DNA of 7,079 nt from Escherichia coli (GTDB lineage Bacteria > Pseudomonadota > Gammaproteobacteria > Enterobacterales > Enterobacteriaceae). Positions within the stretch are counted from its first letter, which is position 1. The number at the start of each line of letters is the position of its first letter. The notes beneath the pieces were generated by a model. The model saw only the letters and a program-made list of their open reading frames with translations. It had not been told where the DNA came from and ran no database searches. Location: assembly GCF_003334305.1 (NCBI RefSeq), contig NZ_QOWS01000048.1; one strand, written 5' to 3'. Shown here in pieces: positions 199 through 5,173 of this stretch. A program made the position numbers and the translations under genes.

Positions 199-981
199 TA
201 CAACTGGGTACAGCATGAACCCTCAGACAGAAAACAAAGTGATGAGCGGCTAAAACTGGAGATTAAGGTGGCACATATCCGCACTCGCGAAACATATGGA
301 ACCCGGCGGCTCCAGACGGAGCTGGCAGAGAATGGCATCATCGTTGGTCGTGACCGACTGGCACGTCTTCGTAAGGAGCTAAGGCTACGCTGTAAGCAGA
401 AACGCAAGTTCAGAGCGACTACGAACTCGAACCACAATCTGCCAGTTGCGCCAAATCTGCTGAACCAGACGTTCGCTCCTACAGCACCAAATCAGGTCTG
501 GGTGGCGGACCTGACGTATGTTGCCACACAGGAGGGATGGTTGTACCTCGCTGGCATCAAAGATGTTTATACGTGCGAAATTGTCGGCTACGCCATGGGA
601 GAGCACATGACAAAAGAGCTGACAGGTAAAGCCCTGTTTATGGCGCTCAGGAGCCAGCGCCCACCTGCCGGGCTAATCCATCACTCTGATCGAGGTTCAC
701 AGTACTGCGCATACGATTACCGGATCATACAGGAGCAGTTTGGTCTGAAAACATCAATGTCGCGTAAAGGTAACTGTTACGACAACGCTCCGATGGAAAG
801 CTTCTGGGGAACGCTGAAAAATGAGAGCCTGAGCCACTATCGTTTTAATAACCGGGATGAAGCCATCTCAGTAATACGGGAATACATTGAGATTTTCTAC
901 AATCGTCAGCGTCGTCACTCTCGTCTGGGGAATATCTCCCCGGCAGCCTTCAGGGAAAAATATCATCAGATGACTGCTTAA
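199..981 (+). CDS. IS3-family transposase OrfB (DDE integrase catalytic domain), 5'-truncated
   Basis: The six-frame ORF 268-981 is open in-frame back to 184, with no start codon of its own. Product has IS3-family OrfB hallmarks: ...NQVWVADLTYV...EGWLYLAGIKDVYTCEIVGYAM..., HHSDRGSQYCA..., SMSRKGNCYDNAPMESFWGTLKNE..., YNRQRRHSRLGNISPAAF. Close to but not identical with IS3, IS150 or IS911 OrfB as I recall them. Confidence 0.85.
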   Translation, partial: YNWVQHEPSDRKQSDERLKLEIKVAHIRTRETYGTRRLQTELAENGIIVGRDRLARLRKELRLRCKQKRKFRATTNSNHNLPVAPNLLNQTFAPTAPNQVWVADLTYVATQEGWLYLAGIKDVYTCEIVGYAMGEHMTKELTGKALFMALRSQRPPAGLIHHSDRGSQYCAYDYRIIQEQFGLKTSMSRKGNCYDNAPMESFWGTLKNESLSHYRFNNRDEAISVIREYIEIFYNRQRRHSRLGNISPAAFREKYHQMTA

Positions 982-1023: not shown

Positions 1024-1223
1024 GGTATCAAAAAGCGATAGATGCAGCTAATACACGACATAACCAAGAAATAAATCATTAAACGACAACACTTAATACC
1101 ATATTGTGAAGATGTTCAGACATGGCGGAATTCCCCTATTCTTTGTTGGCGCTTACAACAGACTATATTCCGCCATATCTGTCTTTATTGTGTATAAACC
1201 ATCGATACTGATGTTTGATAGTG

Positions 1224-2522
1224 CTAAATAATCATTGGCGCAATCACAAAGCCTAATGCCACTCCAGCAATAATTCCCCCCAACCCAGGCAGCATAAATG
1301 GATGATTCAGCACATATTTGCCTACACGAGTTGTGCCGGTAGTATCAAATTCCATGGCAGCCAGTGATGTTGGATACGTTGGCAGTACAAATACTCCGGT
1401 GACGGCCACATAGGACGCCAGAATTGCCCAGGTGGGCACGTCAAGCGCGACGGCAAGCGGGATAATTAACGGCGTGGTCGCACCTTGCGAGTAGAGCAGC
1501 GCGCAAGTGCCAAAAAGAACCAGCGCCAACAACATCGGATACGCCTGCAAAATATCACCAGCAATATCTTTAATCTCAGTTAAATGCGCATCAATAAAAG
1601 TGGTGCCTAAGGTTACAATGCCGAGAATTACCGCCAGCGAACTCATCCCCGCACGGAATGTGGAGGTGAGAATAATGGCATCGGTCGCCGTCTTACACAG
1701 CATCACCATCAGGCAGGCGGCAGAGAGCATACAGATAATAATGATATCGCGTGTTTCCATCGGTTTACCGATATCAAAACCCGGACGCAGTTGGGGGAAG
1801 GCAGCAAGAATAACAATAGCGACCGTCGCCAGCAGGAACAATCCGACGGAGAGCGTCGCACCTGGCTTGATGCTGCTATTATTCTCGTATTTTTGCACCA
1901 GTCCTTTTTGCAGGCGCTCAAGGTAGACCTCGTCATCCTGCAACTCACATCCCTGTCGGGAAGCAATAAAAGCGGCGACCATCGCGGCAGCAAAAGAGGT
2001 GGGAAGACATACCGACATCACTTGAATAAAACTGACACCGTTTACCTCCATAATAGTGAGCATAGCCGCCATTGCGGCGCTGATCGGCGAACCGGAAATC
2101 GCAACCTGCGAAGCGACAACCGAACCGGCAAGCGTGCGGGAAGGACGGATACCGGACTCTTTCGCCACTTCAGCAATCACCGGCAGCGTGGAAAAAACAA
2201 TAAACCCAGTACCGGCCATAATGGTCATAGACCAGGTGATAATCGGCGCGATTATGTTGATATATTTCGGGTTACGCCGCATAAAATTACCAGCGACGCG
2301 TACCAGATAATCCATTCCGCCTGCGGCCTGTAAGGCTGAGGCCGCCACAACAACGGTCATAATAATCAGGATCACGTCGACTGGCGGCGACCCCATAGGC
2401 AGACCAAATCCCAGAGTCAGAATGGCAAGCCCAAGCCCGCCACATAAACCAATACCGATTCCCCCCTGGCGAATACCAAAAAATATTGCACCAAGTACTA
2501 CGATAATTTCCAGCCAAACCAT
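1224..2522 (-). CDS. Anaerobic C4-dicarboxylate transporter, DcuA/DcuB family (432 aa)
   Basis: The 432-aa product aligns along its whole length with E. coli DcuA as I recall it (N-terminus MVWLEIIVVLGAIFFGIRQGGIGIG... versus DcuA MLVVELIIVLLAIFLGARLGGIGIG...; RRNPKYI, TLPVIAEVAKE, LPTYPT, GTTRVGKYVLNHPF motifs). Strongly hydrophobic throughout. GGAG Shine-Dalgarno 7-8 nt upstream of the ATG at 2522. Confidence 0.9.
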   Translation of the reverse strand: MVWLEIIVVLGAIFFGIRQGGIGIGLCGGLGLAILTLGFGLPMGSPPVDVILIIMTVVVAASALQAAGGMDYLVRVAGNFMRRNPKYINIIAPIITWSMTIMAGTGFIVFSTLPVIAEVAKESGIRPSRTLAGSVVASQVAISGSPISAAMAAMLTIMEVNGVSFIQVMSVCLPTSFAAAMVAAFIASRQGCELQDDEVYLERLQKGLVQKYENNSSIKPGATLSVGLFLLATVAIVILAAFPQLRPGFDIGKPMETRDIIIICMLSAACLMVMLCKTATDAIILTSTFRAGMSSLAVILGIVTLGTTFIDAHLTEIKDIAGDILQAYPMLLALVLFGTCALLYSQGATTPLIIPLAVALDVPTWAILASYVAVTGVFVLPTYPTSLAAMEFDTTGTTRVGKYVLNHPFMLPGLGGIIAGVALGFVIAPMII

Positions 2523-2587
2523 AATGTTCTCCGTTATAAATATAATTCAGTTAAAAGCGAATAACTTTCTGGCTGCGATTTAAATGA

Positions 2588-3307
2588 TTATTGGGTTAAA
2601 AGATAATGTTTACCGACACGATTTTCGTACCATTTTATTCCGGCACGAACGAGTGACGCCGTTGAGTCAATATAGCGGGAAGGCTGCTCTTTAACGGCTT
2701 GCGCCAGAATAACCGGAATTTCTGTACAACCAAGAACAAGGATTTCTGCACCGCGAGAAAATAATATTTCAGCCTGCTCATTCATCAACTTTTGTGCGTG
2801 CGCTATATTGCCAGCTTTCAAGGAATAAATACTTTCCATCACTTTTTTCTGACCGTCGGCATCGGGGCTGACACAGGTAAATCCCAGCGACTCAATTCCT
2901 TTTTGGTATAAACCCATATATAGCGTGGCATTGGTGGCTAACAAGCCAATTCGGGTTTTACCACAGGCGCGAACTTCATTGATCGTAGTTTCTACGATAC
3001 TTAATATATCAATATGACAAGCATCTTTTAATTCTTTGAACCAGTAATGCGCGGTATTACAGGGAATAACAATACATTCTGCCCCGGCATCTTCCAGCTT
3101 ATGCATATAATCACGCATAACGGGTAATGGTGAACGCCCATGATGCATTAATGCATCGGTACGGTCAGGAATATCCGGGATCGAAGAAATAATTAAAGGA
3201 ATATGTTCCTGATCACATTGTGCAGCGGTAAAAGTTACAAATTTATTAAACAGGTCGACGGTAGCTGCCGGCCCCATTCCACCGAGTACACCAATTAAAC
3301 CTTTCAC
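2588..3307 (-). CDS. Asp/Glu racemase-family enzyme, aspartate-racemase-like (239 aa; GTG start)
   Basis: Signature motifs of PLP-independent two-cysteine amino-acid racemases: GVLGGMGP near the N-terminus, IVIPCNTAHYW (first catalytic Cys) and LVLGCTEIPV (second catalytic Cys). Start codon is GTG at 3305-3307 with a GAGG Shine-Dalgarno ~10 nt upstream; an in-frame stop lies 4 codons further upstream. Only 65 bp separate it from the downstream Dcu gene on the same strand, with no terminator seen, so the two are probably co-transcribed. Confidence 0.85.
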   Translation of the reverse strand: MKGLIGVLGGMGPAATVDLFNKFVTFTAAQCDQEHIPLIISSIPDIPDRTDALMHHGRSPLPVMRDYMHKLEDAGAECIVIPCNTAHYWFKELKDACHIDILSIVETTINEVRACGKTRIGLLATNATLYMGLYQKGIESLGFTCVSPDADGQKKVMESIYSLKAGNIAHAQKLMNEQAEILFSRGAEILVLGCTEIPVILAQAVKEQPSRYIDSTASLVRAGIKWYENRVGKHYLLTQ

Positions 3308-3651
3308 AATACCTGCCTCTCAAAACGTTAATGACAATACGCGGTAAATAACTGCTGCTCTCTTTTTTAACAGTCGAAATGGGCGATGAGAAATGCAAGG
3401 TTGTACAAGGCGATGCAAGACACGCATGATGCAGCTATGGAACATTCCGCTTATTCACCATAGTGATGATGTATTCTGGTTATCTGACGGAAAAATTTCG
3501 TTTTTTTGGCGAAATGTGATATCAACGTCAATACCGGAAATGAAGGGGTTATGCACAAAACGAATGATAAAGGCCAGGTTGTGCTAATTGAGAACATTAT
3601 TTTTATTGCCGGGATGTTTTATTATGTCTTTGGATTGAAAATACAGGTGCC
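3308..3651. promoter_or_regulatory. Divergent promoter/operator region between the racemase-Dcu operon and the LysR gene
   Basis: 344-bp non-coding gap between divergent start codons. Contains three 10-bp-phased direct repeats (atgcaagg 3393-3400, gtacaagg 3403-3410, atgcaaga 3413-3420), an overlapping ATGC-N7-GCAT dyad (3413-3427) and a TCAC-N4-GTGA dyad (3455-3466) with LysR-type T-N11-A spacing. Confidence 0.5.
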
Positions 3652-4596
3652 ATGGTAATGAAGAATATCGAGACAAAATGGTTATACGATTTCCTGACAC
3701 TGGAAGCCTGTCGCCATTTTTCTCAGGCGGCAAAAGAGCGTAATCTTTCGCAACCCGCATTCAGCCGACGAATTAAGGCGCTGGAGGCAGCGATCGGCGT
3801 TGTTTTATTCGATCGCACGACCACCCCTTTACAATTAACCGAAGAGGGCAAGCTCTTTCATTCCCAGACTCGCAGCTTATTACAGCAGCTTGAATGCAAT
3901 TTGGGGGAGTTAAACGGCCAGAGTTTACTCGGCGTTCCCAACATTAAAATTGCAGCCGCGCACTCACTATCCCTGAGCGTATTACCCAAACTGGTGCATT
4001 CACTTACCGCCTATGGCGGAGAATTTGTCTATCATGTTGAAGCCATTGATGTTGTCCAGGCCGTAAATACGTTACGCGAAGGCAAGAGTGACTTTATTAT
4101 TTCGTTTCGCGATGAAGATCTTATGCAATCGCCTTTTTGCTGCCTGAAACTGTTTGAATCTGAGTTGTACCCGGTATGTGCCGCCGACGCACAGGGGCAC
4201 CCTGTATTCGATATCACTCAGCCCCAGGTTCCTTTGCTCAACTATACCGCCACATCTTATATGGGCAGGTTGGTCAATCGTCATCTGGCAGAGGTTGGAG
4301 GTATTACCGGGCGCACGATATTTATCTCTTCGATGAGCGAGTTATTAAAGAATATGGCGCTCAACGGATACGGCATTGCCTGGTTACCGATCTGGTCGAT
4401 CGTCGATGAACTACAGACCAAACGTCTGATATGCCTTGATGCTGCTAAATTGACAGTCCCCATTCAGGCTTATATTTACCGAATGAACACCCGACTGAAT
4501 AGAACCGCCGAGAACCTCTGGCGTATTTTACAGGAACATATGCCAGACGATTTAATCCAGCAGATATCAATGGAAGAGCCAGCATGCCGCAATTGA
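3652..4596 (+). CDS. LysR-family transcriptional regulator (LTTR), YjiE/HypT-like; true start more likely the ATG at 3658
   Basis: N-terminal winged-HTH region (...LEACRHFSQAAKERNLSQPAFSRRIKALEAAIGVVLFDR...) followed by a LysR-type substrate-binding domain. The N-terminus resembles what I recall of E. coli YjiE (...NIETKWLYDFLTLE...). An AGGTG Shine-Dalgarno at 3645-3649 sits 8 nt before the ATG at 3658 but only 2 nt before the ATG at 3652. Confidence 0.9.
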   Translation: MVMKNIETKWLYDFLTLEACRHFSQAAKERNLSQPAFSRRIKALEAAIGVVLFDRTTTPLQLTEEGKLFHSQTRSLLQQLECNLGELNGQSLLGVPNIKIAAAHSLSLSVLPKLVHSLTAYGGEFVYHVEAIDVVQAVNTLREGKSDFIISFRDEDLMQSPFCCLKLFESELYPVCAADAQGHPVFDITQPQVPLLNYTATSYMGRLVNRHLAEVGGITGRTIFISSMSELLKNMALNGYGIAWLPIWSIVDELQTKRLICLDAAKLTVPIQAYIYRMNTRLNRTAENLWRILQEHMPDDLIQQISMEEPACRN

Positions 4597-4713: not shown

Positions 4714-5173
4714 TTACTTACGGTCCGTAAACGGGCTGCCCGGACAGGGAATCGATAACTGCTCTCCCATTTTATCCTCTTCAAGCTGGTGCTTTATGTA
4801 ATCCTGTATCTTCGCCGTGTTCTTACCCACTGTATCGACGTAGTCCCCCCTGCACCAGAACTCCCTGTTCCTGTATTTGAATTTCAAATCACCAAACTGC
4901 TCGTAAAGCATCAGACTGCTTTTCCCTTTCAGATATCCCATAAACCCGGATACGCTCATTTTGGGCGGGATCTCCACAAGCATATGGATATGATCTGCAC
5001 AGCATTCAGCTTCCAGAATCCGTACGCTTTTCCACTCACACAGCTTTCTCAAAATACTGCCTGTTGCTCTACGCTTCTCTCTGTAGAACACCTGTCTTCG
5101 GTATTTTGGCGCAAAAAACTATGTGATATTTACAGTTCCATCGGGTGTGCGCTAAGCTCTTTTCGTTCCCCAT
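4714..5173 (-). pseudogene. tnpA: IS200 transposase tnpA (Y1/HuH), apparently frameshifted
   Basis: ATG at 5173 (minus) opens MGNEKSLAHTRWNCKYHIVF, then the frame changes at a T6 run (plus A6 at 5113-5118). The remainder ...FAPKYRRQVFYREKRRATGSILRKLCEWKSVRILEAECCADHIHMLVEIPPKMS...FWCRGDYVDTVGKNTAKIQDYIKHQLEEDKMGEQLSIPCPGSPFTDRK* is in another frame (six-frame ORF 4714-5091). The intact IS200 TnpA as I recall it reads through ...KYHIVFAPKYRRQ..., so this copy appears to carry one extra T. Confidence 0.75.

Follow-up and report, generated by a model that had tools for sequence, protein, structure and literature searches.

Which regulator, or how many, would act on the cluster of short repeats that lies between a racemase gene and a divergent LysR-type regulator gene in an Escherichia coli accessory island? 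The window analyzed here, a 7,079-nucleotide stretch of E. coli contig NZ_QOWS01000048.1 (RefSeq assembly GCF_003334305.1), carries a dcuA-like transporter gene and the racemase gene, both on the minus strand, followed by a 350-bp intergenic region and the LysR-type gene (orf7) on the plus strand, with insertion sequence (IS) remnants flanking the three genes. An earlier sequence-only reading of the intergenic region had singled out three direct repeats phased at 10 bp, an overlapping dyad and a separate candidate LysR box, and had suggested that more than one regulator might be integrated there. Comparison across genera leads us to a simpler picture, in which positions 3388-3427 probably form the operator of the divergent HypT-family regulator orf7, combining a recognition dyad with an ATGCAA/ATGT activation site at the promoter that would drive the racemase-dcu genes. 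Our verdict, drawn from sequence comparison, is for a single LysR operator rather than a multi-regulator hub.

A conserved composite element in the divergent promoter region

The elements of the sequence-only reading are all present in the window: the three octamers ATGCAAGG (3393-3400), GTACAAGG (3403-3410) and ATGCAAGA (3413-3420), the palindrome ATGC (3413-3416)-N7-GCAT (3424-3427), one half of which is provided by repeat 3, and the palindrome TCAC (3455-3458)-N4-GTGA (3463-3466). To gauge what chance alone would yield, we used 2000 dinucleotide-preserving shuffles of the 350-bp intergenic region for the octamer triple, the repeated 7-mer and the 4-N7-4 dyads. The triple scores 18 of 24 pairwise matches at a step of 10, the top value among steps 6-15, and this score was reached at 10-bp phasing in 12 of the 2000 shuffles, or in 32 when steps of 9-11 were allowed. 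A repeat search also returned the exact 7-mer ATGCAAG at 3393 and 3413; an exact 7-mer repeated at 10, 11, 20 or 21 bp occurred in 171 of the 2000 shuffles. Dyads of the 4-N7-4 type are not enriched in the intergenic region (4 observed vs 1.7 expected, with 10% of shuffles reaching 4), the single ATGC-N7-GCAT of the 7-kb window has at least one counterpart in 49 of 200 shuffles, and about 1.3 palindromes of the 4-N4-4 type, such as TCAC-N4-GTGA, are expected per 350 bp (339 positions/256). Single-sequence statistics are thus suggestive rather than compelling, and it is conservation that argues for a real feature.

A scan of one genome per species retrieved 24 loci. The divergent arrangement of the LysR gene and racemase-dcu persists in E. 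albertii, some 14 Citrobacter species, Trabulsiella, Limnobaculum, Leminorella, Providencia, Pectobacterium and Mannheimia, and more distantly, without dcu, in Brenneria. MAFFT alignments and a gapless, dyad-anchored alignment of 29 loci, scored as mean pairwise column identity over one representative per lineage (n = 15), reveal four conserved blocks at fixed spacing, namely TTTAACAG (3366-3373; identity 0.62), GAGAAATGCAA (3388-3398; 0.86), ATGT (3401-3404; 0.76) and ATGCAA-N5-GCAT (3413-3427; 0.87 for ATGCAA and 0.97 for GCAT), set against a background identity of 0.27-0.34 in the flanks and 0.27-0.43 over flanks and spacers together. The dyad is the best-conserved element: ATG.A....GCAT is nearly invariant, and the form ATG(C/T)-N7-GCA(T/A) is found in 29 of the 29 aligned loci. 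The ATGCAA of the 3388-3404 block and that of the dyad lie exactly 20 bp apart in all loci, independent ones included. The features in question are as follows:

3388-3404, no strand: block GAGAAATGCAA-N2-(A/T)TGT, containing repeat 1 (ATGCAA at 3393); ATGCA invariant; proposed activation site overlapping the -35 region
3403-3410, no strand: repeat 2, GTACAAGG; the conserved ATGT takes in only G3403 and T3404 of this octamer, and ACAAGG is confined to Escherichia-lineage copies
3413-3427, no strand: dyad ATGCAAGACACGCAT, ATGC-N7-GCAT, a T-N11-A box that includes repeat 3; proposed HypT-family recognition site, from sequence and conservation
3455-3466, no strand: TCAC-N4-GTGA, present and not conserved

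The footprint supports the suggestion that the divergent promoter holds a conserved regulator-binding region and redraws its layout. The orthologous alignment proposed as a check upholds repeat 1 (0.84), repeat 3 (0.78) and the dyad, and removes repeat 2 and TCAC-N4-GTGA. Repeat 2 (0.44) is not conserved beyond Escherichia: its per-base identities run 0.87, 0.66, 0.37, 0.54, 0.23, 0.23, 0.27 and 0.37, and its position is occupied by GTTTG... in Citrobacter and by GTTTCTGG in K-12, so that the alignment marks the middle repeat as a lineage-specific coincidence. The conserved array is therefore not phased at 10 bp; it consists of two ATGCAA hexamers 20 bp apart, with ATGT 8 bp after the first. 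The opposition that had been drawn between direct repeats, typical of response regulators or AraC-like proteins, and LysR-type dyads likewise dissolves, because T3414 and A3426 are separated by 11 nucleotides and ATGC-N7-GCAT is itself a T-N11-A box. The element put forward as the LysR box, TCAC-N4-GTGA, is a T-N10-A palindrome of a kind expected by chance, is broken in E. albertii (TCGCCATGGTTA, TCGC...GTTA) and is unalignable in Citrobacter. Other uses of the region fared no better: there was no Rfam match at E <= 1, and a 64-residue open reading frame at 3393-3587 was discarded, as it reads ATG-CAA-TAA in Citrobacter, with a stop at codon 3.

The composite element accompanies HypT-family regulators

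The dyad also precedes the racemase or yjiH operons of K-12, Salmonella, Hafnia, Providencia, Pectobacterium, Edwardsiella, Mannheimia and a Burkholderiales metagenome-assembled genome (MAG), in the following gene arrangements:

Providencia, Pectobacterium, Mannheimia: dcu and racemase genes divergent from the LysR gene
Edwardsiella: LysR gene downstream of dcu, convergent with the racemase-dcu pair
Burkholderiales MAG: racemase gene, then genes with Pfam domains of the succinate-dehydrogenase/fumarate-reductase type and the fumarate-lyase family
Salmonella, Hafnia, K-12: regulator encoded by the last gene of yjiH-yjiG-iadA-hypT; a convergent racemase gene also in Salmonella and Hafnia

We scanned these loci in two ways. 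A 13-position regular expression for the composite gave 10 matches over about 100 kb, or about 200 kb when both strands are included, against about 0.05 expected, all of them upstream of racemase or yjiH operons. A matrix built from window-type intergenic regions only and run over both strands of whole loci of 10-24 kb placed its top score upstream of a racemase or yjiH operon in eight of nine independent HypT-family loci, K-12 included. These top scores were 14-49; unrelated positions scored no higher than 12, and no higher than 10 in seven of the eight loci. In every matrix-confirmed locus it is the activation-site side that lies nearer the target gene. Furthermore, seven residues of the recognition helix, SQPAFSRRI in the window protein, do not vary within the family (S31, Q32, F35, S36, R37, R38 and I39), in keeping with a single DNA specificity.

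In K-12 the composite, GGAAAATGCAAGTATGTTTCTGGCTATGCGTTTTTTGCAT, lies in the yjiH-kptA intergenic region, 116-130 bp upstream of yjiH (NC_000913.3:4560771-4560810; 12772-12811 of the extracted locus L028), keeps the 20-bp register and is followed by an extended -10 element, TGaTAAGGT. The yjiH-type dyad of K-12, Salmonella and Hafnia is extended to GCTATGC-N7-GCATAGC, and 5390 of 5426 E. coli genomes carry the yjiH-type region. Searches of the K-12 metN region and the iadA-hypT junction revealed no composite site, with one 1-mismatch dyad at metN. The convergent racemase gene downstream of the yjiH operon has a weaker operator-like site of its own in Hafnia (L031, 6681-6720; score 14.1) and in Salmonella (L032, 6709-6748; score 7.2), with an extended -10 element TGaTAGTGT, which suggests that one regulator could control both the yjiH operon and the convergent racemase gene in these genera.

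We raise, as a serious yet tentative possibility, a broader reading of these sites, in which the composite GAAATGCAA-N2-ATGT-N8-ATGC-N7-GCAT would be the true high-affinity operator of the whole HypT/YjiE/QseD family. HypT's own operon yjiH-yjiG-iadA-hypT, which includes an isoaspartyl dipeptidase gene, would then be its primary direct target in K-12, aspartate racemase genes with or without Dcu would be the targets elsewhere, and the family would sense aspartate-related metabolism, such as D-aspartate or isoaspartyl peptides. If this holds, the hypochlorite regulon (met, cys and iron genes, the site being absent at metN) would be secondary or of low affinity, and carriers of the SRL island described below would hold two cross-talking paralogues with one operator type. 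As a box kept from Pasteurellaceae to Enterobacteriaceae and fronting yjiHG-iadA-hypT in K-12, the element may define a HypT-family box, point to aspartate-related operons as direct targets and redefine what the family primarily controls. The part of the HypT literature that we covered contained no publication on the present operator, on orf7 or yjiH regulation or on a HypT site at yjiH; the HypT-DNA studies within it used micromolar protein on 'hypT promoter DNA' or reported fhuA footprints of seemingly unrelated sequence.

Predicted promoter layout and proposed mechanism

Read on the minus strand, in the direction of the racemase gene, the conserved order is ATGC-N7-GCAT, then N6-ACAnnCTTGCATTTCTC, then N14-CTGTTAAAAA. 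The last two blocks contain a candidate promoter:

3387-3392, minus strand: predicted -35 hexamer TTCTCA, 4/6 to TTGACA, with a 17-nucleotide spacer to the -10; TTCTC/TTTTC conserved
3364-3372, minus strand: predicted extended -10 TGtTAAAAA (within plus-strand TTTAACAG, 3366-3373); TGnTA conserved

In 10 of 11 family promoters the TGnTA element, often as TGnTAnnnT, keeps a constant spacing to the dyad, while the distance from dyad to start codon varies from 68 to 182 nucleotides in that set and up to 243 among the aligned loci, which ties the geometry to a promoter rather than to the coding sequence. As extrapolated from the extended -10, transcription would start near 3357 (3356-3358), giving a leader of about 50 nucleotides to the GTG at 3307. 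Relative to this predicted start, about -63 would be the position of the dyad centre (3420) and about -43 that of the ATGCAA/ATGT block. LysR-type regulators typically combine a recognition site near -65 with an activation site near -35 of the regulated start, and the predicted placement would fit this usual layout. A sigma-54 reading of the TTGCAT motif was rejected on inspection, as no GG element lies 10-11 nucleotides upstream in the window or in Citrobacter.

We propose that a regulator tetramer would place one DNA-binding dimer on the dyad, for high-affinity recognition, and the other on GAAATGCAA-N2-ATGT (3388-3404), an activation site assigned by its position two helical turns nearer the promoter, where it overlaps the weak -35. 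When bound to an effector, probably D-aspartate or a related compound, the regulator would help RNA polymerase at this weak -35 and thus presumably activate, rather than repress, the extended -10 promoter that would drive the aspartate racemase and dcuA-like transporter genes from the minus strand. In such an arrangement the direct repeats would stem from a shared half-site, TTGCAT (transcribed strand), that occurs in the activation site and, 20 bp away, in the half of the dyad nearer the promoter. More speculatively, a dimer might slide between two alternative registers, ATGC and ATGT, which have the same orientation and lie 8 bp apart. The activation block was also considered as a second ATGC-N7-GCAT dyad and rejected, since its right half would be TACA, TTTG or TATG, none of which is conserved.

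Identity of the proposed target operon

The three genes correspond to orf7-orf8-orf9 of the SRL pathogenicity island of Shigella flexneri, as all three primers published for that island (PMC6980539) match the window exactly (3432-3452, 1024-1047 and 3261-3277):

1224-2522, minus strand: DcuA-like anaerobic C4-dicarboxylate transporter gene, target gene 2; SRL orf9 (PMC6980539)
2588-3307, minus strand: Asp/Glu-family racemase gene, target gene 1; SRL orf8, an aspartate racemase by experiment, identified by primer identity with PMC6980539; named cuyB, cysteate racemase, by PGAP
3658-4596, plus strand: divergent LysR-type regulator gene starting at 3658; SRL orf7; match to NF007488 and 59% identity to K-12 HypT/YjiE

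The regulator passes the NCBIfam HypT model NF007488 with 406 bits (cut-off 301). The orf8-orf9 genes of S. flexneri YSH6000 confer D-aspartate racemisation and growth on D-aspartate, and a fragment lacking orf7 (window 1024-3452, operator included) restores D-aspartate use from pUC18; orf7 and any operator were outside the scope of that study, in which the promoter was predicted by BPROM only (PMC6980539). The SRL island is therefore the same DNA, the complementing fragment spans 3388-3427, and the regulatory element described here goes unmentioned there. The present analysis supplies the D-aspartate module with the regulatory logic it had lacked, by defining an operator, predicting a promoter and naming orf7 as the likely regulator, and offers a testable reason why the orf7-less clone works, namely cross-activation by chromosomal HypT through the same box.

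The racemase also passes the NCBIfam CuyB cysteate racemase model (249 bits, cut-off 190); we preferred the D-aspartate experiment on the same DNA over cysteate racemase as the operon function, although cysteate remains a possible substrate. Elsewhere, racemase contexts point to aspartate and fumarate, with an aspartate ammonia-lyase gene in the E. coli E308 chromosomal locus (L002) and the succinate-dehydrogenase/fumarate-reductase-type and fumarate-lyase-family domains noted above for the Burkholderiales MAG (L034). In Hafnia, a TauE-family gene (L031, 6839-7651), elsewhere annotated as a sulfite exporter, faces the racemase gene, which keeps cysteate in play. The GTG start of the racemase gene at 3307 is conserved, and the published orf8-only clone (PMC6980539) begins at an internal ATG at 3277, 10 codons later, and so omits MKGLIGVLGG, which forms the first strand of the racemase fold; this N-terminal truncation may explain the failed single-gene complementation in that study.

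A second, degenerate copy of the composite

Upstream of the LysR gene the composite recurs in degenerate form and in the same orientation:

3531-3565, no strand: ATACCG-N14-ATGCACAAAACGAAT, with its dyad at 3551-3565, 138 bp from the first dyad and 92 nucleotides before the LysR start

The Citrobacter version reads ATGTCA-N14-ATGCAAAAAACGAAT. The offset between the two copies is +137 to +139 in Escherichia, Citrobacter and Trabulsiella, where the intervening sequence is unconserved while its length is held, and is +151 to +153 in Budviciaceae, +148 in Pectobacterium, +129 in Edwardsiella and +104 in Mannheimia. The second copy may serve in looping or in autoregulation. Two further repeats touch it: a 20-bp-phased pair inside the copy, GAAATGAAGG (3537) and AAAACGAATG (3557), and a 19-nucleotide direct repeat (84%), ATGAGAAATGCAAGGTTGT (3386-3404) and ATGATAAAGGCCAGGTTGT (3564-3582), found in the Escherichia version only, whose first copy spans the activation block of the first site and whose second overlaps the final two bases of the second dyad and ends shortly beyond it.

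Weighing the proposed operator against alternative explanations

Several observations weigh against the proposed operator. A strict sigma-70 consensus scan of 3250-3720 returned no promoter, and terminator-like hairpins at chance level only; a blank scan is expected for an activator-dependent promoter, and it means that the promoter call rests on cross-species conservation of TGnTA. The predicted TAAAAA does not end in the usual T, the activation-site block has no dyad symmetry, and Brenneria, the most distant locus, keeps only ATGT-N7-GCAT and fails the matrix test. The orf7-less complementation shows the regulator to be dispensable at high copy, where either plasmid copy number would bypass it or chromosomal HypT would substitute for it at the same box. 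The comparison with Salmonella HypT cuts both ways. Its DNase I footprints at fhuA cover the 15-mers TTACGTTATCATTCA and AACCCTTCCTTTTCA, about 102 nucleotides apart, and the accompanying tetramer model predicts a spacing of 25-30 nucleotides or a looped one, not adjacent sites (PMC6397515); on inspection each 15-mer shares only two of the eight dyad positions of ATGC-N7-GCAT. The two systems do share a regulator family, the window protein being 59-60% identical to E. coli and Salmonella HypT, and a pair of sites some 100-140 bp apart (here at 3413 and 3551), but unlike the fhuA sites the present element is conserved across genera and lies at racemase and yjiH operons rather than at iron-uptake genes.

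The fhuA geometry also lends some weight to a looping or repression model, in which the dyads at 3413-3427 and 3551-3565 would be bridged by a HypT-type tetramer or higher oligomer and ATGCAA at 3393 would mainly belong to the promoter. The published tetramer has DNA-binding dimers facing opposite sides (PMC6397515), and a second dyad recurs 104-153 bp away in all racemase-type regions, at a near-constant distance across Citrobacter despite the unconserved spacer and even in Edwardsiella, where the LysR gene is not divergent. However, the yjiH-type promoters of K-12, Salmonella and Hafnia have the full first composite with no second dyad within 260 bp; the spacings of 104, 129, 138, 148 and 152 bp do not correspond to a fixed number of helical turns, so that a constant helical phase between the copies was rejected and no looping claim is made; and ATGCAA...ATGT is as conserved as the dyad and keeps the 20-bp register, which a bare -35 would not need. 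We consider this model unlikely as the principal account, although it is compatible with the single-operator reading.

The remaining alternatives fare far worse. That the phased repeats bind a response regulator or AraC-type protein while LysR binds at 3455-3466, so that at least two regulators are integrated, could appeal to the modest excess of 10-bp phasing in the shuffles (12 of 2000) and to a CRP-like TGTGATATCAACGTCA at 3515-3530, between the operator copies, with three mismatches to TGTGA-N6-TCACA. That stretch is unalignable outside Escherichia, however, and consensus scans of the intergenic region for CRP, FNR and ArcA-like sites gave nothing conserved, the best match to the FNR consensus TTGAT-N4-ATCAA carrying four mismatches and none being FNR-like. 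With the middle repeat and TCAC-N4-GTGA unconserved, and with no response-regulator or AraC gene in the window, in its flanks (LysR, racemase, dcu and IS remnants only) or in the orthologous loci, footprinting largely refutes this model, which we hold to be very improbable: the conserved element, its dyad a T-N11-A box, travels with HypT-type LysR proteins in every context examined and does not require a second regulator. Barely credible, finally, is the view that these are chance repeats in AT-rich intergenic DNA, or promoter elements without a dedicated regulator. The weak single-sequence statistics for the dyad and the 7-mer and the expression of the operon from a multicopy plasmid without orf7 would fit it, but block identities of 0.76-0.97 against 0.3 in the flanks over 15 lineages would not, nor would the recurrence of the element at non-homologous yjiH operons wherever the regulator family occurs; moreover, the best-conserved block lies about 40 bp upstream of the predicted -35 (about 20 bp edge to edge), where RNA polymerase alone needs nothing.

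Relation to known operators

Tandem direct-repeat sites are characteristic of OmpR/PhoB-type response regulators and AraC-type activators. Like such sites, the present element has same-orientation hexamers on one helix face, just upstream of or overlapping the -35; unlike them, it conserves two of the three copies, spaces them by 20 bp rather than 10-11 bp, uses one as half of an inverted repeat and has no linked gene of either type. Classical LysR operators include sites 1 and 2 of BenM/CatM (ATAC-N7-GTAT near -64 and -43), those of OxyR (ATAG-N7-CTAT) and those of CbnR. With these the element shares a 4-N7-4 T-N11-A dyad, a divergent LysR gene, a weak promoter that would need help, a predicted centre near -63 and a less symmetric second site about 20 bp closer that overlaps the -35. 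It departs from them in its family-specific ATGC/GCAT half-site, in the extra distal copy about 138 bp away, in a promoter-proximal site made of same-orientation half-sites (ATGC-N4-ATGT) instead of a dyad, and in that its positions are predicted. At the level of sequence, then, the element behaves as a LysR operator, in having a T-N11-A dyad and a cognate gene next to it and in occurring together with the regulator family. References on T-N11-A boxes and CbnR are cited in PMC5935101 and PMC6397515.

Decayed copies and mobile-element context

The window belongs to an E. coli accessory island that about 348 of 5426 complete genomes carry. About 233 E. coli genomes harbor a decayed paralogous copy, the left part of whose intergenic/operator region is about 74% identical. 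In the copies of the E. coli E308 chromosome (L002, 3383-3850) and of plasmid pSK6988_164k (L003), the operator is intact, an IS3-family element interrupts the racemase gene about 15 codons in, at almost the same position in both loci, and the regulator gene is frameshifted in L002. Two 4-kb contigs from MAGs labelled 'Lachnospiraceae bacterium' (L004) and 'Proteobacteria bacterium' (L005) encode a racemase identical to that of the window, with transporter and regulator 99-100% identical, and are probably mis-binned island fragments of E. coli or Shigella. Finally, decayed mobile elements bracket the island (window 268-981, 4714-5091 and flanks), comprising an IS600-like IS3-family transposase fragment, a frameshifted IS200/IS605 tnpA and an IS1 pseudogene just outside the window, which fits horizontal spread of the three-gene module.

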